Positions 14,684 through 59,218 of a stretch of DNA of 64,000 nucleotides are shown in pieces (position 1 is the first letter of the stretch; the number at the start of each line of letters is the position of its first letter). The stretch lies in the sequence record MW822008.1; one strand, given 5' to 3'. Below the pieces are notes generated by a model that ran no database searches, was not told the origin of the DNA, and saw only the letters and a list, made by a program, of their open reading frames with translations. The position numbers and the translations under genes are program-made. The stretch is from Escherichia phage BF17.

Positions 14684-14715
14684 AGAAAAGGAGAGCAAAT
14701 GCTCTCCTTTTTGTT
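14684..14715. terminator. Bidirectional intrinsic terminator
   Basis: aaaa-AGGAGAGC-aaat-GCTCTCCT-ttttgtt between the clp gene (+) and the giant gene (-); almost the same sequence recurs at 60449-60480. Confidence 0.75.
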
Positions 14716-20700: not shown

Positions 20701-23700
20701 AATTATTCTGACTCCAAATAACAAAGTCTTTAGCAATAGTTGTCCAGTCTTGTTGAGTACCACTATCATTTACATCTTCAAAAATCCAGCCATGTTCTTT
20801 TAGATATTCACCATATCCACAAATGAAAGTATAAACTTCTTGGTATGTATTGAATATTTTACCATATTCTAATGTACCTTCAGATTTCCATTCATTGTAA
20901 TGAACAACAGTTCTGTCTTCCAATTTAAGAGTTACTTTTCTTCCATTTTTAACTGGAATTTTATATTTAAATTTAGCACCAACTAAATCATAACCATCAA
21001 TTTGATATGCACTACCATTCCAAGTAATTTTTACTGCACTCATTTGCTCATCGCGAATGTTATTGGAACGAACTAGACCGATAGTTTGGTTTTCTTGTGA
21101 AATCAAACCGAAAGATTTAGCAGTGAATGTCAATTGGTCTGCTTTAGTAAAGCCACCAATTTTGTGAGCGACATTGACATAAGAAGAACGAACAACGTCA
21201 CCGTATTTGGTGGTAATGTTCTTATTCTGATACATCAAATAGTCACTAACAAACATTTGATAACCGATAGTACGGGTGTTTTTCTCACCATGTACTAATG
21301 TAGTACTGTCAAAGTTTAGACGCTTACGGGTTTCACCATAAAGGAACTGTGAACCATCAGTATAAACTGGTTTAAGGTTATCATTACGGGTATCCCAGTA
21401 ATAGTTTGCAAACTGTGCTGGTTTTGCTTTGTATAGAAGAAGCATTTGGTCATAAGCAAACATCGCAGTGTTCATGTAAGTGAATTCCATGTCACCCATG
21501 TCACCATAAGACCACGGTTCTGCACGATGATCTAAATTACCACTAACAAGACCTAAAACTTCAGGTGCAATATACTCAACTTCACAAATATCAATACCAG
21601 TACTGGTTTTCTCGCCAGTCTTAGTGATTTTAAATGGCTGTACACCGAAACGCTTGTATTTGTCATATTGACCACGGCGTTCACCTGACAAAATAGTACC
21701 AGTACTGCTATCACCGATAGTACCATCAATATCCCACAATCCACTTGGGACCAAATCACCATTTTCATTCATTACTAGTGCTTCATACACATAAACAACA
21801 TCACCCTCACGTTCACCAACTTGAACTGCGGTTGGTTCGTATTCTTGGTTCCACCAAGTAGGACGTTGAGAGAAGCCCATCATTTCCCACGGATGGGTTG
21901 CTGGACGATATGTGCCATATTGGTCAGTATAGATTGCACGCCATGAACCACGAGCAGGAATTTCAGTACGTTGACCATCAACAACATAATAACTACCAGT
22001 ATAGTTCCAAGTTCTCCAGTTATTTGCATCATAATCATGAGTACTGTTACTAATGCCATTGGTTGCTGTGAAGTTAATGTAACCACGTAGTAATAGAGTT
22101 TTCTTTTCTTCTGCACTATAATCAGTACCAGTGAAATATGGAGTTGGGAATAGGTCTTCACTGTTTAGTACTGGTTTATAATCAATATCCTTGAAAGTAA
22201 GATCAATACTATTAAAGATACGATTTTCCAATTCAAAAACTACGTCATCCATTTTATCAACACCATTGATAACACGGTATGCTTTTGAAATAATACCAGT
22301 ATGACTGATATTATAACAGCTAGATTTACTACCAGCAGTTAAGAATGTTGCTTTTTGTGGTGTATAAGCTTGCAAAATACCCAAGAACTGTGGAGTTGGT
22401 GGGACAAATGCACGAATAAACCCAGCAGTGCTTGCAACGTTGTCATAGTAGAATGGGAATGTACTATCACGTCCCATATTAATAGCTGTTAGAATCGCAT
22501 CTACGATGTTTGATGCACTATTACCAAGAAAAGCACTTGGGTCTTCTTCATACAAACGAAGCATTTGAGTGTTGAACTTGTTAATGAAGCGGAAGTATTC
22601 TGCTTGCATAAACATGATTGATTCAAACAAATCAATATCTTCATTAGCGGTATGTGCCATTAGTGGTAACATGGACGCTTCGTTTTGAATAATTTTAGTG
22701 CCTACACCATTATTAACCAAACCAGCAGCCAAACGTTCTTCGTAATTGTTAAAGTCATCAGCAGAACCAGATGTAATATTCTTTTGAATAATATCTTGGA
22801 AGTGCAGGGTGTAATCACCTTGGTTGATGTATTCAATGTTTGAATTATATGGGTTATTTTGTAGATTAATTGGAACTTCATATGCACCCAACTCTTTATT
22901 AGGAGTGATAGTGCTACTATAAGTTCTGATTTGTACAACAGAATCTTCATCCAAATCAACAGAGCTATCAATTGTAATACTTTGTACTTGATTATTAACT
23001 ACAGTTTTTGTGTATTCTTTTATTTCCACACCATCAACAACTAGTTCGATAATATCATCAGAATTATCTAGTACTTTTTGTGCCAATTCAAATGTATGAT
23101 TGTACTTAACGCTTTGTACCCCATCACCAACGATAACATGCCAATCAAGATATGTTTCACGTTCTGCTTTGTAATATTGATAAGTTCTGTCAACTTCAAT
23201 TACATAAGCATACATTCCTTCAACTGGGTCTTTGAAACTTTCCATGTCATAAACAGTACTGAACACGCGGAACATTACTGTACGTTCAACCTGTGGAGTT
23301 TGTTTAACATATTGTTTGGAGTATTCAGTACTACGAACCCAATCAGTTTCTAGGTTCATTGTATTACCTTCACCAATTACGTTATAGTAATATAGTCCAT
23401 CAATTTCAACTTCCACACCCAAATGCTCGTAAGTATAACGAGTTGATTGTAGGAAATTCTCATATGTGTAATAATTGTAATCACCTAGTTCAATATTATA
23501 ACCATAAACGCTATCAGTTGCATAATTATAGTTAATTTTAAAACCAAATAGTGAAGAACCAGTAAAAGTACTTGATGGATAGGTAGTAGTGTTGTTTAGT
23601 TTAACACCATTACGGTCATACAATTGGAATTGTGGAAATACGTTCACAGAAGTTTTAGACTGTGCTTGAATCCAATGAGAACCGTCCCAATACATGGAAC

Positions 23701-24685
23701 TGTTACCAAATTCATTACCTTTGATAATAAGAACTACGTCACCATCTTGTGGTTCACCACTCGGACGGCTTTCAGATTCTTCGTCTGGATCTAATGCTAG
23801 ACCATACACACGTGTTCCATCTTGCATACGTTTAACATATACTTTATAAATTCGGTTGTTTTCACCATTGTTACCAATACTGGTGAAAAGAATACGCATA
23901 CCATCTTGTGGAATAATACCATCAATACGTATACCGCTGTTAATATCTTTTTGTACGATATCTTCAGGTTTAATAATATCAGAGAACAAATCAACTGTCC
24001 CACGGAATTTAGTACCGTAGTTCATTAGTTCGATATTTTTATTGTATTCGATAATTGGTGCACGAGCACGAACAAAACGGGAATCTTGCATTAGTTCTTC
24101 AGTTAGGATAGTACCATCTTCTAAAGTTTCACCTAATGTGTACCAGAAGTTTTGTAGTGACCAAGTGTTACCATTTTCTGCACCACGTTCCATTACAATA
24201 TAATCTGGAGTTGTGATATTATAGCTATTCTTGGAATCCCATAGGTATGAACTGTAGTTGTTCATTTTATTTGGGTTAATTGGTGGGGTCCATGAATAGA
24301 ACTTACCATTAAACAAACGGCTTTCATTTTCGGTTAGTGCACCGTAATGATTCATATAGCCAACTAGATCATCATAAAATTGAATTGAACGAATGCTGGA
24401 GTCATCATTTCTTGAGACATACGCAGTGGACAACTGATATAGTTGACGTGCGACTGTTGACTCGTGTAAGAAGATGTTCCCTGCTGCTGCCGGAGAACCC
24501 ATGTCACCAATGTAGCCGTCAACTAATTCGTTTTCAGCCGGATTAAACCATTGTTGGATAACATCATCACTGACTTTCTGAATATCTTCTAAGCCTTGCA
24601 TCCACTCAGGCAATCTTTTTATGAAAAGCTTCTTCTGTACTGCTTCAGCCATCTGTGTAGGTTGAAACTTAAAATTATTAGTCAT
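14714..24685 (-). CDS. Giant virion protein (~3,320 aa), baseplate or tail-fiber associated by synteny
   Basis: Single uninterrupted ORF. Preferred start ATG 24683-24685 (MTNNFKF..., RBS GGAG 9 nt upstream); the ORF-track start 24715 lacks an RBS. Follows the gp6-like gene in the baseplate operon. Confidence 0.7.
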   Translation of the reverse strand: MTNNFKFQPTQMAEAVQKKLFIKRLPEWMQGLEDIQKVSDDVIQQWFNPAENELVDGYIGDMGSPAAAGNIFLHESTVARQLYQLSTAYVSRNDDSSIRSIQFYDDLVGYMNHYGALTENESRLFNGKFYSWTPPINPNKMNNYSSYLWDSKNSYNITTPDYIVMERGAENGNTWSLQNFWYTLGETLEDGTILTEELMQDSRFVRARAPIIEYNKNIELMNYGTKFRGTVDLFSDIIKPEDIVQKDINSGIRIDGIIPQDGMRILFTSIGNNGENNRIYKVYVKRMQDGTRVYGLALDPDEESESRPSGEPQDGDVVLIIKGNEFGNSSMYWDGSHWIQAQSKTSVNVFPQFQLYDRNGVKLNNTTTYPSSTFTGSSLFGFKINYNYATDSVYGYNIELGDYNYYTYENFLQSTRYTYEHLGVEVEIDGLYYYNVIGEGNTMNLETDWVRSTEYSKQYVKQTPQVERTVMFRVFSTVYDMESFKDPVEGMYAYVIEVDRTYQYYKAERETYLDWHVIVGDGVQSVKYNHTFELAQKVLDNSDDIIELVVDGVEIKEYTKTVVNNQVQSITIDSSVDLDEDSVVQIRTYSSTITPNKELGAYEVPINLQNNPYNSNIEYINQGDYTLHFQDIIQKNITSGSADDFNNYEERLAAGLVNNGVGTKIIQNEASMLPLMAHTANEDIDLFESIMFMQAEYFRFINKFNTQMLRLYEEDPSAFLGNSASNIVDAILTAINMGRDSTFPFYYDNVASTAGFIRAFVPPTPQFLGILQAYTPQKATFLTAGSKSSCYNISHTGIISKAYRVINGVDKMDDVVFELENRIFNSIDLTFKDIDYKPVLNSEDLFPTPYFTGTDYSAEEKKTLLLRGYINFTATNGISNSTHDYDANNWRTWNYTGSYYVVDGQRTEIPARGSWRAIYTDQYGTYRPATHPWEMMGFSQRPTWWNQEYEPTAVQVGEREGDVVYVYEALVMNENGDLVPSGLWDIDGTIGDSSTGTILSGERRGQYDKYKRFGVQPFKITKTGEKTSTGIDICEVEYIAPEVLGLVSGNLDHRAEPWSYGDMGDMEFTYMNTAMFAYDQMLLLYKAKPAQFANYYWDTRNDNLKPVYTDGSQFLYGETRKRLNFDSTTLVHGEKNTRTIGYQMFVSDYLMYQNKNITTKYGDVVRSSYVNVAHKIGGFTKADQLTFTAKSFGLISQENQTIGLVRSNNIRDEQMSAVKITWNGSAYQIDGYDLVGAKFKYKIPVKNGRKVTLKLEDRTVVHYNEWKSEGTLEYGKIFNTYQEVYTFICGYGEYLKEHGWIFEDVNDSGTQQDWTTIAKDFVIWSQNNLSTGEFISCTPSAANAKFGADFGSVQSVTQNSGGVWSLLDDENQGIRQYEIETSRIGNVFTVRTTSESQKRMALIRLSLSSYEHAVVFDDKTIFGDYIYQPTYGAIQELIKMYGYITGSWTGRLQAPGFIILEAGTLPSFEKLVTDFELYYNSETPVSDVQLQELSNHLIGYQTRDYLQRMISSDVSRVDFYKGFIHDKGTNQVMEKVLRVSKSYDTDEYKALQEWAFKIGTYGNINGKKNLQFKLINDQFKQQPQMVSFDVNATSNGTGNGIVYYGEQGVDSRWITRPNGKFSFPMRSGRSENIQLPDIGPVTLDEISYVTKDFSTAYNDRINYMNNSGEIPDSVWMFKDGNDLWNIFELVDTEVEMLSIVPIENTDVYAEQFCKVTLSDDIPLNDGDYYYFVDETNFMPDTLTIESQYYTAGNDPRVMVVPFDTSITIDFTDPDTRPRLYRYVSRFSTEEMRQEYIDRKYSFKAPQSTLFDRPTTYDERTNITALYLNVFDPINGVIPGAAMQNVTYTSPVDPAQYNSNGELIQAWGADKVGQVWWNTSTAFYLDYTRAIYDADGNVDVDATNEYKRYNWGRLLPHSTVDVLEWVCSPVEPYNWDKYCKDVANKNKNNTMYLPSGTALEDNYSTFLEYDSTTDTYVTKYYFWVRDTIYVPPLHSRTKSCTDIARIIKEPAQLNIPWFAPINESSFILSNMQFEVNDDTSILTVSYYMDNTEVIKHDQYQLCKEGDSYNFNPSIWTSMWNSMIGQETTESGTVIDLLYPLVPNGLGSNKTWFQDVIEARRNFVESANNYYRSQNITTNTVLMDEVFNVKTTEVNPNEVSYRVLTYNSELVIAPESDKFKENDAVLVSTSGVLPTPLSTSSVYFVHIDANGYIHLMNSPSSAGSVVTITLENRGEGQQKMIKQSDYVEALGTSLDMTQYWSLADWYDIGYDKNTAYTQESSLEDANTKNYQVGDIIRITDVDGIWTLYIKAQSRDSVYWKAIGRENSTVELNDMLYADYTVRDANGSLSNREINVRKALALLKNSFDLHQSEIVFDMVKYVHVEQSVVDWVFKTSYIYIVGLEQSLVQNYSNDNLINQIVEYFEEVKPYRTKIRSQIEQKTSDDDLIKGLCNDLDPNGYIFADGTWVKTEKDIWDYEYAQFNEVTQRWEQVGELPSDFVTPNRRFQEIDVIMHYDNTQCKPNDNLASVDVLEEVNKKYQSNAQDVVSNFELQRYKYTFPEYSDEDFDLLVAYQMQLYYPELNVTLGIAYGVNQWYADHADDLVATAEFTETLNRVYKESTQNEMFNDVNHYVQYNTLSNRLKLYTGADDEVIHDEVGCGFSGLTYDDNPSTRLPFGYASSTDYNFGYFEVSSELYNKYVSLIKENNTTATDDEVRIILEVEYGVYSYRHVDENGNQRFYNDAIHVLSGMRGLYDKDATDHYEKAEEILSRMPIDIHAFTMMPRKYVYVNVNGVYESIPDDQSIDDFMEDKFITDGQLVQLAEINLDDLPLDRNNPMYSDYQHILDSITDAKYYDDMNAFDNLALESQTSELKWEVEGDEVDPYIIDISDINPSGRKIGQIRFTVDGYGFNSVSLVQLRDNSRYKTEGMVIINPYKTTEAIVSIPSYAKIENDISKSYSKYDEKYFYKIKSIVSDTEAEVIDNTLSDGDKVMIFTTDGEDYVRYQNNAWETILSVSKIKTDTTPTLYTVRNTANGTVELLDSTGVVLRYDNITKQQQNEPAIPLALNIVRIRTFADPEFLVDGVKLYETNRNYAIDAMNYEVFYDTTLYGGSYNDGITPDDVDVWVVSNEIFEVDGVTIDNGYNLPITGAGVLSELVRTKMTDSVEINVFEYDVGIIQPVLNADGVWEYAYPLVSDTYIGVVGGTVTNITAISEENATYVSQPDSVSPYSVTNNVLSGAGASMNDIISLGFEKVEVRFANNLLRGVMYSAEHDFKENVTYSFNGLNLGKVNLLKRYSVNSYPIELSVYSDSLQISGNDIKNLLEVK

Positions 24686-24722
24686 TTTTGGACTCCATAT
24701 AATTCGTTCATTCATTTGATTT

Positions 24723-24765: not shown

Positions 24766-27700
24766 TTATGAACCAATGTTAATGTTACTCTTAGCCAAGG
24801 AATTGACTATCTGTACGTTATCAACTGATGCAGTACTTAAGAAAATCTGGTCAGAACGTGAAGGGATTTCAAATAGTGATCCAAATTTAGAGTTAGGGTT
24901 TTGAGCTACGATAACAATAGTACTAATATGTCGTCCTAATTGGGAGTGAATGTATGTACACAAGTCTGTGTAATAGAAACTTTCACCAAAATCCCAGTTG
25001 TCAACATTAAAATACTCGTTAGTTAGTGCTACGACATTTTGACGAATTTCATCATCACTCATTGTACTGTTAGGCAATTTGACGACTTTAAAATCTGCTT
25101 TATAATCTTCAGCAGCACTCGCACCAAATAATGGTAGATATTCTGCACTATGCCAAATAATACTGTCACTGATGACTATTTTTTGTTCAACTTCTTTAAA
25201 AATGTCTTTCAATTCAACAGATGTTGGCGGTTTAGGCATATTACCTTGTGTTCCATTCTTCAACCATACATCAACTTCAGTTTTGTATGAATTGGTTAAT
25301 ACATACATGTCAATCAAGTTTGTTCTACTTGGGTCAATGCGATTATCATCTGGTGCATAATGTTTCCAGTGGAAATCAATACCAGTTCTTGCATTCGTTT
25401 TTACGGTATATTGTGAAGTTACATCTTTATAACCATAATAATCTAACTTTTGGTTAACATCAGCATTAGTACCGATATTAACAATAGCACGATAAAACGC
25501 AAGTTCAGGAGTTGCAGCAGTTGTATCATCAGAATAGGTCAAGTTCTCAATTAATTGGTTTAAACGGTCATTATTATTACCAACAGTTTGTTCAATGAAG
25601 TAATATTTACCATCATAGTTAAAGCCAACTATAAAGCCTGAACCTTTACTATAGATACCACTCAATGTTGTTGATCGAATAGCATTGTTGCGAACAAATT
25701 CACTTCTCTTATACGCATTAGTTTCTGCAAGTGCCTGATCCATTGTATAAGCCCATGAAGAATCAAGAATAGTGAAAGTATCATTCGGTAATGACAGTAC
25801 TGATATAGTGAAATCATCGTTTTCTTGGAAAACCAATATACCACCATATTTAACTGAATCTTCACCAGTCCAATTTGGTACAATTTCTCTGAATTGATTA
25901 GGTTCTAGTGGGATTCCATTACTATCAACGTTTTCAGAGGTGATAACCACACGAGAACCATCAAGATACCCGTTTTCTTGTTGAATTGTGTCATAAATTT
26001 GGAAATCTATGTTACTTGTCAACCCAGCATTACTATTGCTTGTGGTATTTGATGATAAAATTTCAATTTTGTCACTTTGAACACTACCAGTACTAATATC
26101 AGTTATCTTTTTAGAAGAAACGAAGTAAAAACGAACTTTATCACCACCAACGAACACATATTCAACGCCATTCGCATCAAATTCCCAGGTTTCAGCAGTA
26201 TATTTGATGTTAATCATAACAAGAACTTCATTTCCATTATAAGAAATAGTATCTTCATCAGTACTGATTTCTAATGGAATCCAAGAAGTTGTTTCTTTAT
26301 CATGAATAATAACAAAATCTGTCTTTTTATCAAGCATTGCAGCGATTGCTTGCACTTCGACACTATTAAAACGTGTTCTGTATTGTAAAATGTACTCTTG
26401 TGCTTGCATATTTGATGAAACTGAAGTACTTAGAACGTAATATCCATTATCAAGAACACTAACAATACTAGCCCACACAGTAGTTCCGGCATTTGAAAAC
26501 TTAATCAACGTACCAACTTGATAATTTCCGAATACGTTACCTGTTGCCCCCATAATACGACCATACGTATTAGTTGCGTAATTAGAATTGTATTCAGGTG
26601 TCCATTTTTGTTGAATTTCAATACCAATTGTATTCGGTGGATATGCTTGATAACGTTGGATTACAGCATTCTCACCAATCAATGGCTGAATATTATCAAT
26701 TACAATACTAGCATTTGTTTTGGTAGTTGGTAATTGTAAAGATTTATTAAATTGTGTGTTTTCTTGATACATTGAACCATCATCACTAAACACATCAGTG
26801 TTTTGATACTTACCAGTTGGATCATTAATATCAATGAATCGTGACTGTCCACTATATAAACGGTTAATTGCTTTAGATTTAAGAACTGTGTTACCCAAAC
26901 TCAACGGAGCAATGTTATAGTCTTCGCCGTTAACAAAACGGTTTTGAGTGTAATACATTTGTGGAGCACGAGCCTTAATTTGTTCAATTGTTTCTGCACT
27001 TTGTGCACGATCTGATTCATATTGCAATGTGAAACGAATATCCAAAGTACTGGATTCATAGCTTGATTGTGTTTTGGTTCTATAGGTGTATTTTACACTT
27101 TTGTTCTGGATTTCAGACGTTTTAATGTTGTATGTTTCACCATTACTAACACGATACCATACACGATACGTCCCACGAGGAACAACACCACTACGAGAAT
27201 CAGGATACTTAATAGTAATCTGGTCTTTATCACGAGTTGTGACAGCAAAGATTGTTTTTAGTTGACGGTTAACAGTATTGTATGCGATACTTTCCATAGA
27301 TGGAACTTTGGTCCATTTAGTACGTACAATACCATCTTCGTTGATTTCCTGAACCCAAACATCAGTTTCGTTGATATTATCTACGTTGATGTCTTGGATA
27401 CGGTTTTCTTCACGAATATTATATTGGTAATCTTGGTATGTCAATGTCCCTTGAACAAAATAAACGAAGAAACCAGTATTTGGTGAACTAAATCCGTTAC
27501 CATCATTCTGATAAACGATATATTTTTGCTCTTGTGGTTCAGGGTGACGCTCTTCAACACCAACTGCTGTAATATCAGGGTTGACAACTTCAAATGTCAT
27601 CGATTCACCATTAACTGTAGCTGTGAATGGAAGACTTGGTGCTGACATTGGAATTGTATTCATACGATATAGCTGACGAGAAACACCATTGATATCGATA

Positions 27701-28227
27701 CGTTTAACCGGATTACCAAACTGGTTAGTACTGACAAATGAACTGTTCATAACTAGAATGAAGTTCTCATACCAGTTTGTGTCCATTGGGTCATTCCAAC
27801 GAATGATTTTATCCTTAAGTGATTCGTTAAAACTATTACGAACGTCTTGGTTGGTTTTTATTTCTGTTAATTTAGCAACTGCACGACCTGGATATGAACG
27901 GCGTGGAGAGTAAGAAATCATTTTTGCGAGTTTCAGTACTGATGCACGACGAGTAGCAGTATCTAGGAAGTTCTCACGAGTGTTTAAATCCATACGGAAT
28001 GCTAAGTTCTGTCCTAGCATAGAAATGGTATCTAGAATAAAGATGAACTGGTCGTTTTCGATCCAGTCGTTGAAAGAATCTGGGTACGTAGCACGTAGAT
28101 AGTCAATCATACTTTGACGGATTGTATCAAAGTCATAAGCTGTTAGATTGATCTTATAAAAGCTTTCATATACTTGAGTCCAATCTTCACCAGCGTATAA
28201 ATTTGATTGCCTTTTTTGTTGTGACAT
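24766..28227 (-). CDS. Baseplate wedge protein, gp6/Baseplate-J-like (1153 aa)
   Basis: RBS AAAGGAA; N-terminal region (YDFDTIRQSMIDYLRATYP...LDTISMLGQNLAFRMD) resembles the gp6/J N-terminus as I recall it; lies downstream of the gp25-like gene as in conserved baseplate modules. Confidence 0.6.
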   Translation of the reverse strand: MSQQKRQSNLYAGEDWTQVYESFYKINLTAYDFDTIRQSMIDYLRATYPDSFNDWIENDQFIFILDTISMLGQNLAFRMDLNTRENFLDTATRRASVLKLAKMISYSPRRSYPGRAVAKLTEIKTNQDVRNSFNESLKDKIIRWNDPMDTNWYENFILVMNSSFVSTNQFGNPVKRIDINGVSRQLYRMNTIPMSAPSLPFTATVNGESMTFEVVNPDITAVGVEERHPEPQEQKYIVYQNDGNGFSSPNTGFFVYFVQGTLTYQDYQYNIREENRIQDINVDNINETDVWVQEINEDGIVRTKWTKVPSMESIAYNTVNRQLKTIFAVTTRDKDQITIKYPDSRSGVVPRGTYRVWYRVSNGETYNIKTSEIQNKSVKYTYRTKTQSSYESSTLDIRFTLQYESDRAQSAETIEQIKARAPQMYYTQNRFVNGEDYNIAPLSLGNTVLKSKAINRLYSGQSRFIDINDPTGKYQNTDVFSDDGSMYQENTQFNKSLQLPTTKTNASIVIDNIQPLIGENAVIQRYQAYPPNTIGIEIQQKWTPEYNSNYATNTYGRIMGATGNVFGNYQVGTLIKFSNAGTTVWASIVSVLDNGYYVLSTSVSSNMQAQEYILQYRTRFNSVEVQAIAAMLDKKTDFVIIHDKETTSWIPLEISTDEDTISYNGNEVLVMINIKYTAETWEFDANGVEYVFVGGDKVRFYFVSSKKITDISTGSVQSDKIEILSSNTTSNSNAGLTSNIDFQIYDTIQQENGYLDGSRVVITSENVDSNGIPLEPNQFREIVPNWTGEDSVKYGGILVFQENDDFTISVLSLPNDTFTILDSSWAYTMDQALAETNAYKRSEFVRNNAIRSTTLSGIYSKGSGFIVGFNYDGKYYFIEQTVGNNNDRLNQLIENLTYSDDTTAATPELAFYRAIVNIGTNADVNQKLDYYGYKDVTSQYTVKTNARTGIDFHWKHYAPDDNRIDPSRTNLIDMYVLTNSYKTEVDVWLKNGTQGNMPKPPTSVELKDIFKEVEQKIVISDSIIWHSAEYLPLFGASAAEDYKADFKVVKLPNSTMSDDEIRQNVVALTNEYFNVDNWDFGESFYYTDLCTYIHSQLGRHISTIVIVAQNPNSKFGSLFEIPSRSDQIFLSTASVDNVQIVNSLAKSNINIGS

Positions 28228-28283
28228 AATTTATTCCTTTAAATCAGTAAAGTACTAGTTCAGTACTGGGAATTATATATAGA

Positions 28284-28293
28284 AATATTTATC
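28284..28293 (-). promoter_or_regulatory. Late-promoter-like GATAAATATT (minus strand)
   Basis: About 60 nt upstream of the 1153-aa gene start and downstream of terminator 28297-28325. Confidence 0.3.
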
Positions 28294-28296
28294 CAA

Positions 28297-28325
28297 AAAG
28301 AAAAGCACCCCGAAGAGTGCTTTTA
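28297..28325 (-). terminator. Intrinsic terminator with UUCG tetraloop (minus strand)
   Basis: Minus strand reads AGCACTC-TTCG-GGGTGCT-TTTCTTTTT after the gp25-like gene. Confidence 0.65.
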
Positions 28326-28329
28326 TAAT

Positions 28330-28725
28330 TTACAAAGATGATACAGAATAGGTAGCCATTCTGTTGTTACTTCTTGCATCAAAAACTATAGTTAATTCTT
28401 CAAGAGTATTGAGAACAACATATTCAAGTACTATATCCATCTGATAACCGTACTCAATTCTTGATATTTGAAGTTTCTTTAAGCTTAAACGTGGGTCCAA
28501 GCTAATAATTCTACGGGCATCTGCTTCCAAAAGGTTGATTGTATTATAACCATCCAATTCAAATAGCAAATCCCACGCAATGAACCCATAATCAGCATCA
28601 AATGCACGTTCACCTTTTTTTGTATTGAAATGATTCATTAAATCCTGACGAACCAATTCACTGTCATACAATGTTTCAGTTCTTCCAACTACTGGAGTTG
28701 AAAAACCTTTAAAAACAATTGCCAT
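28330..28725 (-). CDS. Baseplate wedge protein, gp25/GpW-like (131 aa)
   Basis: Size, position next to the spike and gp6-like genes, and motifs (GERAFDADYG, DARRIISLDPR) resembling gp25; RBS AGGAAAC. Confidence 0.65.
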   Translation of the reverse strand: MAIVFKGFSTPVVGRTETLYDSELVRQDLMNHFNTKKGERAFDADYGFIAWDLLFELDGYNTINLLEADARRIISLDPRLSLKKLQISRIEYGYQMDIVLEYVVLNTLEELTIVFDARSNNRMATYSVSSL

Positions 28726-28740
28726 TATGTGTTTCCTTTA

Positions 28741-29229
28741 TTATACGGATTCGACGATGCGAGCCATCTTCTCCGCTCTGGATGTGGTTTGTTTGTACCA
28801 CGAACTATCACGCATTTCTTTACCAGCAGTTTTATAATCCCCACGACCGAGAGCAGCCATCGCTTTTTTGAAATTTAAAACTTTTGATTTACCCATTTGG
28901 AACACCATAAACCACAATACACGCTGAACCTGTACTGGAGCAGTCATTCCAAATTGATCATAGATTGATTTTGCGTCATTGTAAGCGGTCTGAGCATCTT
29001 TTATAAGGAGAGCATCAGCTTCTGCTTCAGTGAGTCCATTTTTGAAACTTTCACCCTTAAGTACAAGGTGACCGTAACCAATGGTATCAAGACCTAGACT
29101 GTCTTTATATACCCAAAACTTATCATTTTTAAAATAACCAAGTTTTTTCTGATACGCAATAGTACCTTCAAATTCTTTAATTTCTTTAAAAAATTGTTCG
29201 TCGGTATTTTTGATTTCCCATTTACTCAT
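28741..29229 (-). CDS. e: Endolysin, T4 lysozyme-like (GH24 muramidase)
   Basis: EFEGT...DSLGLDTIGYGH catalytic Glu/Asp/Thr block and MVFQMG helix typical of T4 lysozyme; RBS AGGAAA; paralogous to the C-terminal domain of the adjacent spike. Confidence 0.85.
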   Translation of the reverse strand: MSKWEIKNTDEQFFKEIKEFEGTIAYQKKLGYFKNDKFWVYKDSLGLDTIGYGHLVLKGESFKNGLTEAEADALLIKDAQTAYNDAKSIYDQFGMTAPVQVQRVLWFMVFQMGKSKVLNFKKAMAALGRGDYKTAGKEMRDSSWYKQTTSRAEKMARIVESV

Positions 29230-29246
29230 AAAGATTTCCTCATTAT

Positions 29247-29254
29247 TATTTATA
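29247..29254 (-). promoter_or_regulatory. T4-type late promoter TATAAATA (minus strand) for the endolysin gene
   Basis: Exact TATAAATA in the minus orientation, preceded by the TTTCAGTACT block seen at other late promoters; an AGGAA RBS follows. Confidence 0.5.
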
Positions 29255-29266
29255 GTACTGAAATAT

Positions 29267-31930
29267 TTATTGACATGCCTCTAATCTACGTGCCATTAAT
29301 TCAGCACGGCGTGTAGTTTGACGATACCAAGCTGAATTTCGAATTTGAGCAGCAGCTTGCTTGTAGTTACCTTTAGCCATTTCAGATAGCATTGACTTAA
29401 ATTTCATTACACCACCTTTACCCATCTGGAATACCATTTGACATAGAACTTGTTGTGCCATGTAAGGTGTTTTCATCTTATAAGAAGCGTAAATGGATTT
29501 TGCGTCATATATAGCCTTACTACTATCACGCACCAACATATCATTGGCTTCCTGTTCGGTAATCCCACCAGAGAAGTTTTCACCACCAACAATCAAGTGA
29601 CCGTAACCAATAGTTGGGAATCCACGACTATCCAAATATCTCCAAAATTTACCATTGCGGTAATATCCTTTAGCTTGTTGATACGCCATTGTTCCTTCAT
29701 ATTCTTTCAATTCAGAAATAAATTGTGAATCACCCGGAACAACTTTCCAATCAATTGCAGTCTTATCAACATTACCCACATTGTATGATTCTTGTGCAGT
29801 AGGTGCTGGAGTACCCCCTGAACGTTGTGTTCTTCTACGACGAGGGACATGACGAGAACCACGTTGAGAATACCCAGTACCGATAGTTTTAATTTTAGTT
29901 GTTACAACTAATTCATCACTATCAACAGAAGGTTGAACAACAGCTTTCGGTGCTGCTTGGTTCGTTGCTTGTCCTGCAATTAATGTTTTATTTCCCGCTT
30001 CAGAACCTGTACCAGTCTGGGATGCATAGAATAATCCAGGGTCAACTGAACCACTAAATCCTAGTACGTTGGCAGAGGTAACTCTTATTTCAAATTGAAT
30101 AACACCATTAGCTTTACCGATAACTTGACCTTTTTGAACAACGTCTTTATTGAGCAAATCTGATTGAATATTATAAAATACAGATTTATATCCAGACTTA
30201 TGTTGAACCAATAAAGCACCATTAGTGATAACAACTACACCGCCATCTGGAGCTACAACATCACCCTTGCACTGTATTTCCCAGCCACTTCTATCAGCTT
30301 TACCACCACCACTTGTCGGGACACCTTTCCCCCAATAACCGTATTGGCGAATGGTTCCACTACACGGCATGAACATATGAAGACCTTCATACGTAATGCT
30401 ATAACCAGTCATACCAGGATCAGAAGTCATTAAATCTTGTGTTTGAACTTGTTCTGTTTCTGTTGTATAATTTACATATTGAATTGCTTCAGTGTCCTGT
30501 ACTGGAGCTAAAGTTGGAGCTACATCATTAGCAGGTTCAGGTTGAACTGGGGATTCACTATTCCCACTACCACCACCTTGACGTGGAGGTTCAACAGTAC
30601 TGCCGTGATTCTCAGCATCAACCCAAGCCGATATATCATGTATATGATCATTCAAGCCAGCAGATGGGGTGCGGAAGTTTGGTGCATTAAATTCAGCAGT
30701 ACCACTATTACCACCACTGTTAACAGTAAGAGTTTGACCACCACCACTAATAATAGCTGATGAAGAACCAATAAGATTAGCACTGGTAGCAGCAGAGATT
30801 GACGCATTAGAACCAGCAGTTATATCAGTACTGCTACCACTTTGCATACGTAATGAAGCTGCTGTTACTAAACGTAAATCTGCTCCAGCGTTAATAACAA
30901 CCTGACCACCAACTTTAGCATCCAATGCACCAACCAAATCTAGTTTAGTGTTTGCACCAACACGAGCATTGAAGTCTGCTCCACTTTCAATATTATATGA
31001 GCGTCCAGCAACCATGTTAATATCTTGACCTGCACGAATGTTAATATTCTTATCACAGTGCATTTCAATATCACCTTCACCAGTGAATTTAATACGTGCA
31101 GTACCATCACGGTTAATTAAAAGAACATCACCAGAGGCTTCAGATAACAACAACTGTGCACCACTACGTGTTTTAATTACAACGCCTTCATTTTTACGAG
31201 AACCAACACGAGTATCGTTCACTGGGTTATTGAATTGGGTATCCTGATAACCATCTGGATCTTGATCCCATGTAGGTGCTGTTAATTCTTCTTCTGTGTA
31301 ACCATCATCAATAATAAAACTGTTACCACGAGGTGAGGAAAGACCATAAACAGTACTGGTGGTCTGGCGAGTACTGCTACGGTTAGCAACACCCGCTTCC
31401 TCATCATAAAGTAAGTTTTGTTTTTTCAGACCTGCAATAATTGGAACGTTTGCATATTTGTCTTGAGTACTGGTAGAAATTGTATTACGGTCATAATCAG
31501 TTACGGGTAATGGCATATCAGTACCAGCATAGTTGCTTATTTCAGTAGCCATCCCAGGAACCATCGTATTCATACGTTGGTCATAAACACAACCAATCCA
31601 ATACGCTTGGAATGTTCTTGCTTGTGCAAATATAACAACAACAGTACATCCGACATCAGGTGGAACCGCCCAAAAACCATATCCCTTTGGATATTGACCA
31701 TAAGCATCAGCACTTGGTATCCCTGGAGTTTTGCCAGCGAATGGAGACATGTATGATGCTTCAATCCATGACTCTTTTGAATTTTTATCACTTTGTGAAC
31801 CTTGAATCCACACTTTTAGCTTACCGGATTTAGTTGGGTCACGGTTATCCATCACGGTTGCTAGTTGTGGGTACGAAGGGTCAAAACGACCCAACTGTTG
31901 TTGGGCATATTTCTTACTTGTATCTGCCAT
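29267..31930 (-). CDS. Baseplate central spike, gp5-like (OB-fold, beta-helix, M23-like domain, C-terminal T4-lysozyme domain), 887 aa
   Basis: N-terminus GKLKVWIQGSQSDKNSKESWIEASYMSPFAG resembles the gp5/VgrG OB-fold; repetitive beta-helix stretch; C-terminal ~160 aa (EYEGTMAY...PTIGYGH...MVFQMG) is a GH24 lysozyme paralogous to the downstream endolysin; RBS AAGGAA. Confidence 0.8.
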   Translation of the reverse strand: MADTSKKYAQQQLGRFDPSYPQLATVMDNRDPTKSGKLKVWIQGSQSDKNSKESWIEASYMSPFAGKTPGIPSADAYGQYPKGYGFWAVPPDVGCTVVVIFAQARTFQAYWIGCVYDQRMNTMVPGMATEISNYAGTDMPLPVTDYDRNTISTSTQDKYANVPIIAGLKKQNLLYDEEAGVANRSSTRQTTSTVYGLSSPRGNSFIIDDGYTEEELTAPTWDQDPDGYQDTQFNNPVNDTRVGSRKNEGVVIKTRSGAQLLLSEASGDVLLINRDGTARIKFTGEGDIEMHCDKNINIRAGQDINMVAGRSYNIESGADFNARVGANTKLDLVGALDAKVGGQVVINAGADLRLVTAASLRMQSGSSTDITAGSNASISAATSANLIGSSSAIISGGGQTLTVNSGGNSGTAEFNAPNFRTPSAGLNDHIHDISAWVDAENHGSTVEPPRQGGGSGNSESPVQPEPANDVAPTLAPVQDTEAIQYVNYTTETEQVQTQDLMTSDPGMTGYSITYEGLHMFMPCSGTIRQYGYWGKGVPTSGGGKADRSGWEIQCKGDVVAPDGGVVVITNGALLVQHKSGYKSVFYNIQSDLLNKDVVQKGQVIGKANGVIQFEIRVTSANVLGFSGSVDPGLFYASQTGTGSEAGNKTLIAGQATNQAAPKAVVQPSVDSDELVVTTKIKTIGTGYSQRGSRHVPRRRRTQRSGGTPAPTAQESYNVGNVDKTAIDWKVVPGDSQFISELKEYEGTMAYQQAKGYYRNGKFWRYLDSRGFPTIGYGHLIVGGENFSGGITEQEANDMLVRDSSKAIYDAKSIYASYKMKTPYMAQQVLCQMVFQMGKGGVMKFKSMLSEMAKGNYKQAAAQIRNSAWYRQTTRRAELMARRLEACQ

Positions 31931-31943
31931 CTTAAATTATTCC

Positions 31944-34199
31944 TTATTCAATTATACTATCGTGACGTTTGAGTGCACGAATTACAATTGCAGCCTGAAT
32001 TTGTTGTGTAAATGAACCACCTGCACCAAAATCATGAACAATTTTGTTTACACGATAAACAGTTTGGTTAAATGTAGTTGGGGTATTAATATCAAGAACA
32101 CCAGTGTTATCATTTATAGAAACTACAGGTTGTAATTTCAATAAAAGATATGCTTCAGATGTAATGTAGTTTGCTACATGGTAATCTTCTGGATTAATTT
32201 CCATATCTTCTCCATTAATTACCTGTTCAAGATATTGGATATATGAATAATCACTCCAACCTAACCAATATGGGTCACCAACTACACGCATATCCAATTT
32301 ACACAAGAATGGACGATTGTAATAGTTGTCACGAATTTTACGGCGGTCCATTTCATATGTACTACTGTTATCGTTCAATGATGCAGATAATGTTGTTTCA
32401 TTATTGGTTGCTTCAGTTGGCATTGTGAATACTTCACCATATCGATGACCAATTCCATCGGTTCCACCGTCATTTTCTTCATATGTGGTTACATAATCTT
32501 CAATATACTGTGGTAGAACGTTTACTTGATAGTTATTATAACGATCCTGTTCTTCAGCATTACCAACCTGCATTTGTTCTCTTGCTAAAGTTTCTACTCG
32601 ATTTAAAAGTTGCTCTTGTGCCTGTGTTAATATACCACCAAGATCACGTGTGACGCGTAAATCACTTGTTTTTGCCCACGCATCTGGTATACTGTTGTAC
32701 TGAACACCTTGGATATTCAATTCTTGTGATGTGTGTGTACCAGCATGGTTCGCAACGTCCTGTATTGGACCAGGGTTACGAGTTGTAGCTACAAAGAATT
32801 GCTGATCAAACTTCAAATCAAGGTCTAGAATCTCACTATTGAGTCCACTAAACTGATAATTGTAAGTTTTCATGTTAATCTTTGGTTTTTGGTCATTTGG
32901 GTCTACATATTTCTCGGCATTTTCAAAGAAATACTCAAATGTAAAGTTTTCTGGCTGTAAATCGGATTCATGAACAATATCACCAATTTTAAAACGAACT
33001 ATATAGAAAACAACTTTATAAACTGACGTGTTTCGGTAATTATCAAATCCAACATACTGTTTAAGTGGGATTATATTAACAAATTGACGAACACTAGTAC
33101 TATCATCAGCCTGTACAGTACAGGTATCTATTACGTCATCGATAATTCGAGAAATTGGAGTACTTGGATTCCATGAAAAGTTTTTAGAACCCTGTGCACC
33201 ACTTTTTGTAGCTCCAGCTTCTGCCATCTGTTTAGAATCATAGTTTATAAACAAATCCTGTAAATCTGGTGCAACTTTAAATTCAAAGAACTTCCCTTCT
33301 GCTAACTCACCAAATTTATAACGCAAATAACCATATTGCTGGTCTGCCATTTGATTCAATTTATCTTCCAAATCAAAACAAAAATCACCAAAGTTTTCTG
33401 CTGTGCAGTTAAATGGTTCTTTAAGAGTCCATTCCACATTATCCACTAGAGCCGCACGGTTATGAACAAGACTCATAGAATACATCATAGTACTACCACT
33501 TTGTGATGCACTAGCGGTAACACTGTTAATCTTCACGGACCATCTACGAGTTGTTTCTGGTATAGTTTCAGGTACACCATTAGTATTGAATCCAATAAAT
33601 TTCAATTCTAATATCAAAGGTAAGTCCATGAACTTATGATACCTTAGTTTATTACTTAAAGAAATTAGTTCATCATATAAACTCATACTATTGTTTTCTG
33701 AAAGGTTCAGTACTGCTGTGTTGAAGCAATAGTTGGTTGTCATCCCTGGAGTTGAAGGACCAGCTTGCGTCATCTGAACACTTGTGATATTATACTTTCC
33801 AGTTACACCACTTTCAGAGATGACATGACGTTGAACTTCAGCATCTGGGTAAAGCCAGAAGTTTTTGAAATCATCCTTGTCTAATGCGAAAAGGGAAAAG
33901 TGCCAAGTTGGATTGTCATACTTTAACAATTTATTGTCATAAGGAATAACAAACTCACTTAGATCCAAGTCTTCATACACTTGGTCAACGCTTGCACTTT
34001 GCTTTGGTAAAGACTGTACGTTACTAACCTTAGCTTTAAAATTGTTTTTTACTTTTTCAAGATCATTTTGCAAAGTATTAGCAGTGGCTTTTAAGCTTTC
34101 AATAGTACTTGTTGCAGTTTCTTTTGCTGCCTTTGCAGAACTTGTGATGTTTGAAATATCATTTTTAAAATTATCAACAGAACTTTGTAAATCTGCCAT
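31944..34199 (-). CDS. Baseplate-associated protein (751 aa) with N-terminal coiled coil; role unknown (hub, tube initiator or tape-measure-like)
   Basis: Directly upstream of the spike gene in the same operon; RBS GGAG; no catalytic motif recognised. Confidence 0.5.
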   Translation of the reverse strand: MADLQSSVDNFKNDISNITSSAKAAKETATSTIESLKATANTLQNDLEKVKNNFKAKVSNVQSLPKQSASVDQVYEDLDLSEFVIPYDNKLLKYDNPTWHFSLFALDKDDFKNFWLYPDAEVQRHVISESGVTGKYNITSVQMTQAGPSTPGMTTNYCFNTAVLNLSENNSMSLYDELISLSNKLRYHKFMDLPLILELKFIGFNTNGVPETIPETTRRWSVKINSVTASASQSGSTMMYSMSLVHNRAALVDNVEWTLKEPFNCTAENFGDFCFDLEDKLNQMADQQYGYLRYKFGELAEGKFFEFKVAPDLQDLFINYDSKQMAEAGATKSGAQGSKNFSWNPSTPISRIIDDVIDTCTVQADDSTSVRQFVNIIPLKQYVGFDNYRNTSVYKVVFYIVRFKIGDIVHESDLQPENFTFEYFFENAEKYVDPNDQKPKINMKTYNYQFSGLNSEILDLDLKFDQQFFVATTRNPGPIQDVANHAGTHTSQELNIQGVQYNSIPDAWAKTSDLRVTRDLGGILTQAQEQLLNRVETLAREQMQVGNAEEQDRYNNYQVNVLPQYIEDYVTTYEENDGGTDGIGHRYGEVFTMPTEATNNETTLSASLNDNSSTYEMDRRKIRDNYYNRPFLCKLDMRVVGDPYWLGWSDYSYIQYLEQVINGEDMEINPEDYHVANYITSEAYLLLKLQPVVSINDNTGVLDINTPTTFNQTVYRVNKIVHDFGAGGSFTQQIQAAIVIRALKRHDSIIE

Positions 34200-34210
34200 A
34201 CTTTACTCCA

Positions 34211-34525
34211 TTAACCTATGTTACGAGTACCGTTCAAATAGTTTTGCACTCGTTGATTTGAGGGAACACGAATTGTGATACCACTATTAAAATTGTATAT
34301 TGGGTCTTCTCCTAATATATCAGGATTCAATAGGGCAAATACATAATACAGACGTTCATTACCATACATTTCGTATGCTAAACGCCAAGGTTGATGCTCA
34401 TACTTCAATGGAATTACATAGAAGTCGTCAGTATCAGCAGGAACCATATCACGTGGTAAATTGTAACCAAGATACCACGTTTGTTTAACCTTTGCATAAG
34501 GAGAGTATTGACTATAATTGGACAT
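34211..34525 (-). CDS. Hypothetical protein (104 aa), baseplate operon
   Basis: RBS GGAGGA; 1-nt overlap with the upstream gene stop. Confidence 0.5.
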   Translation of the reverse strand: MSNYSQYSPYAKVKQTWYLGYNLPRDMVPADTDDFYVIPLKYEHQPWRLAYEMYGNERLYYVFALLNPDILGEDPIYNFNSGITIRVPSNQRVQNYLNGTRNIG

Positions 34526-35256
34526 TAGATAAATCCTCCATTACGTAATAGTTCACCACGCTTAAATGCATTTAGGTTGAACTTTTTAGTCATGTAATCA
34601 GATGTTGGTTGTTCTTCAAGTTGAAGCATTACAGATATTTTCTGTGGAACCCATACCTCATCTTGTGGATTCATATATCCAGTACTTCTAAGCTGTTCGA
34701 AGAATTGACGACTATCCATATCAGATAAATTAAAAGTACTATCACTACTATTCAATGGAACCTGAATATAAGAAACATCATTTGGATATGTAAAATTATA
34801 TGCTTTCAAAATAACAGGAATATCATTATATGTATAACGACCATACCCACTTAATAGTAAAATTGGCGGTGGTGCACCTGCAATTGCTAGTTCGGGATTA
34901 TTAGCAGATGCTGCTTGACGACCAAAGTCCATTAAGGACACGGAACGAATAAAATGAACACAAGCCAATGCATACATTGCTTCAGCAGCAGTGTTTGCAT
35001 AAAACTCACCTTGGATAGTGAAAATTGTGTTTGTTGTATTCTTGTAGTTGTTGTAGTTACTGTTAGTATGTATAGGGGACTGTGTTTCATATTGAACCGA
35101 CCTTTGTTCAGTTACAGTTGGGGTTACAGTCCAAACCAAACCATTTGTTGGACGCAGAAACGATAGCAATGTTGGCTCTGAACTGTTGCCAAAATCACCA
35201 TACACATAGTTAGCACCTGCGGTTTTAGGTCTTAATCGGATTCTACGATCAATCAT
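34525..35256 (-). CDS. Hypothetical structural protein (~243 aa; ORF track start 35346 rejected)
   Basis: ATG at 35254-35256 with RBS GGAGA 10 nt upstream; the longer ORF-track start would run through the divergent promoter region. Confidence 0.5.
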   Translation of the reverse strand: MIDRRIRLRPKTAGANYVYGDFGNSSEPTLLSFLRPTNGLVWTVTPTVTEQRSVQYETQSPIHTNSNYNNYKNTTNTIFTIQGEFYANTAAEAMYALACVHFIRSVSLMDFGRQAASANNPELAIAGAPPPILLLSGYGRYTYNDIPVILKAYNFTYPNDVSYIQVPLNSSDSTFNLSDMDSRQFFEQLRSTGYMNPQDEVWVPQKISVMLQLEEQPTSDYMTKKFNLNAFKRGELLRNGGFI

Positions 35257-35291
35257 CTTTTTGATTCTCCATAAGAAGGGAACATTTGATG

Positions 35292-35299
35292 TATTTATA
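35292..35299 (-). promoter_or_regulatory. T4-type late promoter TATAAATA (minus strand) for the baseplate operon
   Basis: Exact TATAAATA in the minus orientation ~36 nt upstream of ATG 35256. Confidence 0.45.
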
Positions 35300-35301
35300 C
35301 G

Positions 35302-35330
35302 TGGGACAAAGACGTTTTTGGTGCTATAAT
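35302..35330 (+). promoter_or_regulatory. Sigma70-type early promoter for the gp55-like gene
   Basis: TGGGAC, 17-bp spacer, TGcTATAAT; shares the TTTGGTGCTATAAT core with the promoter at 40008-40037. Confidence 0.5.
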
Positions 35331-35387
35331 AACATTGATGGTACAAGGAATGTACCTATTGGATTTAAAACATGGAGAGTTGAAATA

Positions 35388-47786: not shown

Positions 47787-47794
47787 TATAAATA
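47787..47794 (+). promoter_or_regulatory. T4-type late promoter TATAAATA for the scaffold gene
   Basis: Exact TATAAATA ~48 nt upstream of ATG 47842. Confidence 0.5.
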
Positions 47795-48995: not shown

Positions 48996-49003
48996 TATAA
49001 ATA
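48996..49003 (+). promoter_or_regulatory. T4-type late promoter TATAAATA for the major capsid gene
   Basis: Exact TATAAATA ~45 nt upstream of ATG 49048, inside the conserved block AAATTTTTCAGTTCTATAAATAATATCATACT. Confidence 0.55.
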
Positions 49004-59152: not shown

Positions 59153-59218
59153 TATAAATAATGGGGAACATGGAGTTCCCCAAATTTTTGATTTAAAAAT
59201 AAGTAAAGGAAGACAAAA

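Follow-up and report, generated by a model that had tools for sequence, protein, structure and literature searches.

Two adjacent minus-strand genes in a 64,000-nucleotide stretch of Escherichia phage BF17 (sequence record MW822008.1; hereafter the window, out of a ~350-kb genome) encode an 887-aa baseplate central spike and a free 162-aa lysozyme of the GH24 family. By its OB-fold and VgrG-type β-helix, encoded in a conserved baseplate block, the 887-aa product is predicted to be a spike of the gp5/VgrG/gpV class. The window belongs to an Asteriusvirus (121Q/RaK2-like) jumbo coliphage; the genus includes 121Q and is placed among RaK2-like jumbo myoviruses. Positions 28300-32000 match 35 E. 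coli and Salmonella jumbo phages in a megablast search, with nucleotide identities of 99.7% to EC.P1, 99.6% to Ecwhy_1, and 84% to 121Q and PBECO4. The Ecwhy_1 product and the 887-aa spike are 100% identical proteins.

Both genes carry GenBank annotations, and the architecture of the spike is already known, its unusual domain order having been in print since 2013; in these respects the locus is ordinary. The RaK2 paper (2013) describes gp078 as a baseplate lysozyme of unusual size that contains a β-helix and a C-terminal lysozyme (PMC3622015). The CBB paper (2017) reports an OB-fold, a central M23 hit (E 6.5e-4), a C-terminal lysozyme, and an adjacent T4-type lysozyme, and contrasts this arrangement with T4 gp5 (PMC5259590). 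Added here are the LytM fold, the family-wide loss of its catalytic residues under selection, the internal HxH motif, and the age, patchy distribution, and candidate late promoter of the free copy.

Domain organization of the spike

From the N-terminus to the C-terminus, the spike consists of an OB-fold, a VgrG-like β-helix, an HxH motif, a flexible linker, a LytM/M23 fold, a basic linker, and a GH24 lysozyme (Table 1). The same architecture is found in 85 full-length homologues, with identities as low as 35%. The T4 gp5 arrangement, with the lysozyme between the OB-fold and the helix, is not found: the lysozyme occupies residues 725-887, after the helix. A preliminary description of the window had given the order OB-fold, β-helix, M23-like segment, C-terminal GH24 and had set it apart from T4 gp5. 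Pfam and the 85 homologues bear this order out, with the addition of the invariant HxH motif after the β-helix, which that description overlooked.

The N-terminal 427 residues, comprising the OB and helix parts, match solved type VI secretion system (T6SS) VgrG spikes (E 8.8e-6). In particular, the OB-fold aligns with the OB region of VgrG 9jg8_G, and the β-helix matches VgrG chains 9jg8_G, 9gtr_q, 4uhv_A, and 4mtk_A as well as T4-like gp5. The match to DUF2345, the VgrG β-helix family, covers residues 278-329 (E 2.8e-7; 30.9 bits, cut-off 30.7). Residues 117-245 are the most conserved part of the spike, with the motifs TDYDRNT, GLKKQNLLYD, SPRGNSF, DDGYT, RTRSGAQ, and INRDGTAR. They have no Pfam match and are modelled with low confidence as a monomer by AlphaFold 2 (AF2); presumably, they form an inter-chain or hub-contact region.

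The residues H429 and H431 of the HxH motif are invariant (85/85 homologues), often as HIHxH, and the motif lies 456 residues short of the C-terminus. Spike apex domains are defined by HxH, which also serves as a trimer clamp in fibres; in P2 gpV, three HxH copies build an iron-binding histidine cage (bioRxiv 10.1101/2023.02.25.529910).

The AF2 monomer contains four confident blocks, corresponding to the OB-fold, the helix (residues 245-395), the LytM domain (512-660), and the lysozyme (720-887), with low-confidence linkers at residues 396-511 and 661-717. The full-length model is used for domain boundaries only, not for domain packing. Linker 1 is the least conserved part of the spike (83.5% amino acid identity to 121Q; ratio of nonsynonymous to synonymous substitution rates, dN/dS, 0.094), and its length differs between homologues. 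In linker 2, I683, G691, and P696 are invariant and S692 is nearly so in 21 homologues, within variable, low-confidence surroundings; the motif IGTGYSQRGSRHVPRRRR could be a cleavage or docking site. The conserved SQRGSRHVPRRRR motif of the spike is a candidate cut site. Compared with 121Q, every domain of the spike is under purifying selection, the degenerate LytM domain included, with dN/dS values of 0.046 in LytM, 0.029 in the lysozyme domain, and about 0.10 in the linkers, all of them rough because dS is close to saturation.

The last ~160 residues match T4 gp5 and T4 lysozyme in the PDB (E 1e-11 to 1e-9), and the Phage_lysozyme family matches residues 765-882 (E 1.9e-10), scoring 41.6 bits on the spike and 37.3 on the free lysozyme (cut-off 22.3). 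The catalytic triad E745, D767, and T773 corresponds to E11, D20, and T26 of T4 lysozyme, in accordance with the GH24 assignment in the preliminary description. Of the 85 homologues, 84 retain Glu and Asp, and 59 retain Thr. With Glu, Asp, and Thr intact, the domain of the BF17 spike is predicted to be a working enzyme. At residue 773 (29612-29614), the equivalent of Thr26, Asp is present in 19 of the 85 homologues, which may change the mechanism or products of those enzymes. Homologues of the spike have been found in virions by mass spectrometry, namely phAPEC6 gp241 (PMC7247149) and CBB_240 (PMC5259590).

Table 1 Features of the spike locus in the window (residue numbers refer to the spike).
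Feature	Position	Strand	Evidence or remark
Baseplate central spike gene, 887 aa	29267-31930	-	Open reading frame (ORF); stop codon 29267-29269
OB-fold, residues 23-116	31583-31864	-	PF04717 Phage_base_V, E 7.9e-7, 29.8 bits vs cut-off 23.8
Conserved region, residues 117-245	31196-31582	-	Dense invariant columns in 21 homologues; dN/dS 0.036 vs 121Q
VgrG/gp5-like triple β-helix, residues ~246-420	30671-31195	-	PF10106 DUF2345; predicted local distance difference test score (pLDDT) 71-86
HxH motif H429-I-H431, putative inter-chain histidine cage	30638-30646	-	Directly 3' of helix region
Linker 1, residues 432-511	30398-30637	-	Pro/Gly/Ala/Thr-rich; pLDDT <50
Degenerate LytM (M23-fold) domain, residues 512-660	29951-30397	-	
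Linker 2, residues 661-724	29759-29950	-	Basic; conserved motif IGTGYSQRGSRHVPRRRR; pLDDT <50
C-terminal GH24 (T4-type) lysozyme, residues 725-887	29270-29758	-	PF00959; pLDDT 81-92
Late-promoter-like motif TATAAATA	29247-29254	-	In 37-nt gap before free lysozyme; T4 late-promoter consensus; kept in 121Q
Free lysozyme gene, 162 aa, GH24	28741-29229	-	PF00959, E 4e-9; paralogue of spike domain
gp25-like baseplate wedge gene	28330-28725	-	PF04965, E 1.5e-8; PHROG 43
Terminator-like hairpin ending unit	28301-28324	-	10-bp stem then T-run, after gp25
gp6-like gene	24766-28227	-	Baseplate block
751-aa virion protein gene, syntenic partner	31944-34199	-	Adjoins spike upstream; PHROG 11190 'virion structural protein'
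gp53-like gene	34211-34525	-	Baseplate block

The degenerate LytM domain

In the spike of the window, Pfam places Peptidase_M23 on residues 550-607 at E 0.003, under the curated cut-off (PF01551 score 18.1-23.4 bits; cut-off 28.7). Residues 500-665 are aligned from 19 diverse homologues; all 19 segments match PF01551 at E<=0.1 (best 7.6e-11), and the family profile finds LasA (2.5e-6), SpoIIQ, DipM, zoocin A, and EnvC among solved structures. The AlphaFold model of the segment is confident (pLDDT 89), and the top Foldseek matches are LytM/M23 domains without exception (50/50), DipM and EnvC first. Both the profile search and Foldseek thus support the M23 likeness that had been noticed from the sequence of the window. 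The segment had been taken for the C-terminal half of an M23/LytM peptidase; it is a whole LytM domain, at residues ~512-660.

The zinc-binding and catalytic positions are replaced. The HxxxD pair is R547 and E551, the catalytic His is N587, and the HxH pair of the peptidase is V610 and Q612; a 7-residue loop before the latter pair is deleted. These positions are mapped by hhalign to the canonical M23 domain of a related spike, P0105 (E 2.8e-8 over 112 columns), and the result agrees with the Pfam alignment. Two other mappings of HxxxD and HxH were dropped in favour of these: a single lysostaphin sequence aligned over only 22 columns in hhalign, and a MAFFT alignment of canonical M23 domains to the family misplaced HxxxD on YGYWGK. 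Across the 85 homologues, none of the five key positions has a conserved His or Asp: the E551 site is Ile in 50 of them, and the other sites are Arg, Asp/Gly, Val, or variable. The preliminary description had noted Gln in place of one zinc-ligand His; this residue is Q612, and the other four positions are replaced as well. The pattern indicates degeneracy throughout the family, not recent decay, and the domain is predicted to be catalytically dead, with a complete fold and under selection. Of the earlier proposal of a non-catalytic peptidoglycan-binding module, the loss of the five residues supports the first part. As to the second, the domain may be a binding module, with no peptidase role, whose ligand is either the stem peptides of peptidoglycan or a partner protein. 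EnvC, DipM, and SpoIIQ, which come nearest to it in structure, bind proteins, not peptidoglycan.

Other lytic domains stand at the C-terminus of related spikes. P0105 (619 aa; L014 7001-8860) ends in an intact M23 domain (PF01551 4.7e-28; HxxxD, His, and HxH present) after an S/T/P-rich linker, and P0099 ends in a GH19-like domain; both have only the N-terminal half in common with the spike. Therefore, swapping of C-terminal lytic domains appears to be recurrent in the family. The intact M23 domain of P0105 suggests, as the likeliest history, that an active M23 payload lost its chemistry after the lysozyme was added; the dead LytM domain would then descend from an active M23 peptidase. The P0105 block is partly shared with that of the window: SbcCD genes, a gp53-like gene, and a gene for a ~760-aa protein lie upstream, and no gp25 or gp6 homologues lie downstream. 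A history in which the free lysozyme was fused onto the spike finds no support there, as the ORF of 168 aa that follows the P0105 spike encodes neither a lysozyme nor gp25.

The free lysozyme and the baseplate block

The free lysozyme aligns with spike residues 728-886 at 50% protein identity over 159 residues, with no gaps (E 7e-57), and its residues E21, D43, and T49 match the spike triad. The two are thus paralogues, as had been proposed in the preliminary description. A 16-mer quoted there as shared between the two genes, ggtgaccgtaaccaat, occurs only once; the exact shared run is 15 nt, ATTGGTTACGGTCAC, coding for IGYGH. Nucleotide identity between the spike-domain gene and the free-copy gene is 56%, and 41% at third codon positions, which argues against a recent origin of the duplication.

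Neighbour joining places the free lysozymes of the window, 121Q, P0055, P0064, and XaC1 in a clade of their own (bootstrap 63-80), apart from the spike domains and spanning E. coli to Xanthomonas phages. The deep nodes have bootstrap values of 2-20, and the free copies of P0077 and P0084 are therefore not assigned to the same duplication. An insertion of ~13 residues between the catalytic Glu and Asp is common to all RaK2-type lysozymes, including a third paralogue described below, and is absent from T4 e and gp5; in the tree, RaK2-type lysozymes group apart from the T4 enzymes. Therefore, the duplication is old, specific to this lineage, and separate from the T4 gp5/e pair, and the spike lysozyme was gained independently of T4 gp5.

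The free copy has a patchy distribution. Among eight distant syntenic relatives, a free GH24 gene lies between spike and gp25 in five (XaC1, P0064, P0055, P0077, and P0084) and is absent in three (P0080, P0076, and P0085). In relatives without it, the spike stop codon is followed by the gp25 start after 1-11 nt, with no remnant. The gap between the spike and free lysozyme ORFs is 37 nt in the window and only 6-15 nt in four relatives. In the Klebsiella phages RaK2 and K64-1, four small hypothetical genes separate the two (span ~4.9 kb vs ~3.1 kb), so the paralogues are not always adjacent. In the record of Escherichia phage CMSTMSU, the annotation splits the spike region into several parts ('VgrG protein', 'tail lysozyme', hypothetical proteins), and only 68% of the length of the free lysozyme is matched, a pattern suggestive of frameshifts or of sequencing errors in the record.

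The TATAAATA motif before the free lysozyme is one of five copies in the window, at 29247-29254(-), 35292-35299(-), 47787-47794(+), 48996-49003(+), and 59153-59160(+). All five are non-coding and lie 5' of a gene on the same strand, in a window that is ~91% coding; their total is not above chance (5 vs 7.1 expected). The sequence ATAAATA before structural genes is the late motif of CBB and GAP32 (PMC5259590), and the window encodes a gp55-like sigma factor. Scans for sigma-70 promoters and terminators gave chance levels overall, and only two strong hairpins directly after stop codons were kept. The late motif and the hairpin after gp25 indicate that the free lysozyme is a late gene, probably made from its own promoter and on the same transcript as gp25. 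The protein has no hydrophobic segment and is probably soluble and cytoplasmic. LysUE1, its 162-aa homologue from UE-S1 with the same MSKWEIK start, lyses permeabilised E. coli in vitro and is 96.3% similar to 121Q gp586 in its authors' BLASTp search (PMC12805682).

The RaK2 paper lists three lysozymes (PMC3622015). The third GH24 paralogue of 121Q, gp532 (308 aa; L013 3192-4118, outside the window), has a LysM domain and, at residues 12-30, a single N-terminal hydrophobic segment. No obvious holin is present in its surroundings, only the small ORFs gp529 and gp535 with a single transmembrane (TM) segment each. Its homologue CBB_187, with a TM segment, a LysM-like domain, and a lysozyme domain, is the endolysin as predicted in the CBB paper (PMC5259590).

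The minus-strand baseplate block comprises genes for a 273-aa virion protein, a gp53-like protein, the 751-aa protein, the spike, the free lysozyme, gp25-like and gp6-like proteins, and a 3333-aa ORF. Nine related loci, drawn from metagenomic genomes and isolates, preserve its gene order at identities as low as 35%. A gene for a 680-780-aa protein holds the position of the 751-aa protein in every related locus; the 751-aa protein, a possible gp27-like hub, has no Pfam match and no PDB sequence match. The 3333-aa single ORF (14714-24715, minus strand), 3' of the gp6-like gene, is annotated as a virion structural protein and nothing more, and has a length of 3300-3500 aa in every related locus. 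An ORF at 34525-35346 (minus strand) is listed with a TTG start; its PHROG match begins at residue 29 and its 121Q homologue has 243 aa. Its true start is probably the ATG at 35262, 30 nt 3' of a TATAAATA motif. In 121Q, the HNH homing-endonuclease gene gp584 (L001 11196-11960) lies between the gp6-like and gp25-like genes; the counterpart in the window, 28228-28329, is only ~100 nt and contains the terminator-like hairpin.

Interpretation and comparison with known systems

Taken as a whole, the locus is best explained, and we consider this explanation likely, by a membrane-piercing tail needle that carries a dead LytM domain and a lysozyme as a tethered payload, and by an old, late-expressed paralogue of that lysozyme. 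Three chains would form the needle, and the HxH histidines would clamp it with metal. The C-terminal half would be tethered in the manner of the payload of an evolved T6SS VgrG. Upon sheath contraction, the spike would cross the outer membrane and the lysozyme would cut glycan strands locally, opening a passage for the tube. The LytM domain, catalytically dead, would bind stem peptides or a protein partner and would not act as a peptidase.

Several points weigh against this model. An apex HxH normally lies near the C-terminus, and ~455 residues per chain after it are geometrically awkward. The full-length AF2 monomer has a predicted template modelling score of 0.29 and is poor outside the globular domains; a literature search found no cryo-EM structure of a RaK2-like baseplate. 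The mass spectrometry coverage of the spike homologues (4-10%) does not resolve their C-terminal domains on the mature virion. A single outgroup underlies the M23 descent of the LytM domain, and pairwise BLAST alignments stop short of the M23 region. In addition, lysozyme activity of the spike and binding by its LytM domain are steps that we infer.

The position of HxH also fits a spike in which the C-terminal half folds back along the needle, as the T4 gp5 lysozyme does, or is cut off in assembly, leaving HxH as a clean apex. Linker 1, ~80 residues long and flexible, could reach back over the helix of ~175 residues, and T4 gp5 is itself cleaved between its lysozyme and β-helix parts, both pieces being retained. 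However, there is no evidence of processing, HxH cages are also internal in fibres, where they act as trimer clamps, and the S/T/P-rich linkers before the C-terminal lytic domains of relatives fit a flexible tether; we regard this arrangement as rather unlikely. That the M23-like domain is an active peptidase using non-canonical residues is scarcely credible: its complete fold under strong constraint and the presence of E551 at the Asp position in this phage would fit, but none of the five positions is conserved in the 85 homologues, the E551 site being mostly Ile, and the loop before the HxH position is deleted. The strong purifying selection on a non-catalytic domain would suit a protein-binding regulator of the EnvC/NlpD/DipM type, gating the spike lysozyme or switching on periplasmic hydrolases of the host. 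The LytM domain of EnvC is matched by hhalign (5.5e-9) and has in common with the spike a FEIR motif without histidines, and degenerate LytM domains use their groove to bind partner helices (PMC10268282). This reading is unlikely, as the EnvC loop G319-G330 contacts the amidase, and the phage domain has, compared with both EnvC and the canonical M23 domain of P0105, a 7-residue gap just before FEIR that may correspond to this loop. A narrower version, in which the domain is a viral mimic of the host activators EnvC and NlpD that docks on the regulatory helix of an amidase or autolysin or gates the spike lysozyme, we consider very unlikely; if it is true, the phage opens the wall by local activation of hydrolases, beyond delivering an enzyme.

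For the free lysozyme, the evidence fits a soluble late muralytic enzyme and does not decide between a lysis role and a minor structural role, although lysis or another non-virion role is most likely. The preliminary description had it as the endolysin, split from the injection enzyme by a local duplication in the manner of T4 gp5 and T4 e. The paralogy stands; the lysis role we hold to be a serious possibility that falls somewhat short of an even chance. In its favour are the T4 precedent of two paralogous lysozymes, the intact triad of a soluble GH24 protein with no hydrophobic segment, the late-promoter motif of its own, and the lysis by LysUE1 of E. coli with a permeabilised outer membrane. 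Data from virions point the same way. In the block of CBB, only the gp25-like and spike proteins are confirmed as structural (PMC5259590), and the virion table of phAPEC6 lists gp238-241, including the spike gp241, and gp244-245, with nothing between gp241 and gp244 (PMC7247149); the free copy is thus not among the listed virion proteins of either phage. On the other hand, the gene lies inside the baseplate operon with spike and gp25 as its neighbours and no holin or spanin beside it, the TM- and LysM-containing third paralogue is the endolysin predicted by the CBB authors, and the free copy is missing from three distant relatives that share the gene order, so that it is dispensable for lysis in that lineage. 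The same location between spike and gp25, the probable common transcript with gp25, and the short gap to the spike in four relatives, which suggests coupled expression, would suit a baseplate component, structural or for assembly, that is present in few copies and was missed by mass spectrometry. The neighbouring gp25-like protein is likewise missing from the phAPEC6 table. However, the block neighbours gp240 and gp241 of phAPEC6 are detected, the annotation of the free copy mirrors its similarity to the spike domain, and the gene is absent from the three syntenic relatives. A structural role is thus quite unlikely.

If the payload model is true, the spike is a phage counterpart of an evolved VgrG, and tail spikes have gained wall-cutting domains repeatedly and in differing positions. 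A needle with an internal histidine cage that carries three appendages of ~450 residues poses a structural puzzle. The conserved dead LytM domain provides a test case for such domains outside bacterial division. In addition, these phages have three paralogous lysozymes, and the 162-aa protein, where it is cloned as 'the endolysin', is only a candidate for that role.

The closest known systems are the RaK2-like tail lysozymes (RaK2 gp078, CBB_240, 121Q gp587, phAPEC6 gp241, and the GAP32 homologue), which have 58-100% identity to the spike, the same domain order, and the same neighbours. T4 gp5 also combines an OB-fold, a GH24 domain, and a trimeric β-helix in one protein, with a free lysozyme paralogue in the same genome. 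However, its order is OB-fold, lysozyme, helix, in contrast to OB-fold, helix, HxH, dead LytM, lysozyme in the spike, and it has neither HxH nor LytM and is capped by a PAAR protein (the gp5.4 tip). The OB-fold, intertwined β-helix, and invariant HxH are those of Fe-loaded HxH spikes of the P2 gpV and phi92 gp138 type, but in gpV the tip is formed by an HxH placed 12-14 residues before the C-terminus, whereas ~455 residues follow the motif in the spike. Evolved T6SS VgrG proteins, for example V. cholerae VgrG3, have an OB-fold and a β-helix followed by a cell-wall hydrolase cargo, as does the spike, whose N-terminal half matches VgrG chains. Unlike the spike, VgrG is fused N-terminally to a gp27-like hub, and its cargo is a toxin against rivals, not an entry enzyme. 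EnvC, NlpD, DipM, and SpoIIQ have the same fold, have lost zinc ligands, and provide the best structural matches to the LytM domain, but they act as regulators in the bacterial periplasm, where their partners are amidases, lytic transglycosylases, or SpoIIIAH, whereas the domain described here is part of a virion protein. Finally, phi29 gp13 also unites a lysozyme with an M23 domain, but in gp13 the M23 domain is catalytic, the domain order is reversed, and there is no OB-fold/β-helix spike.

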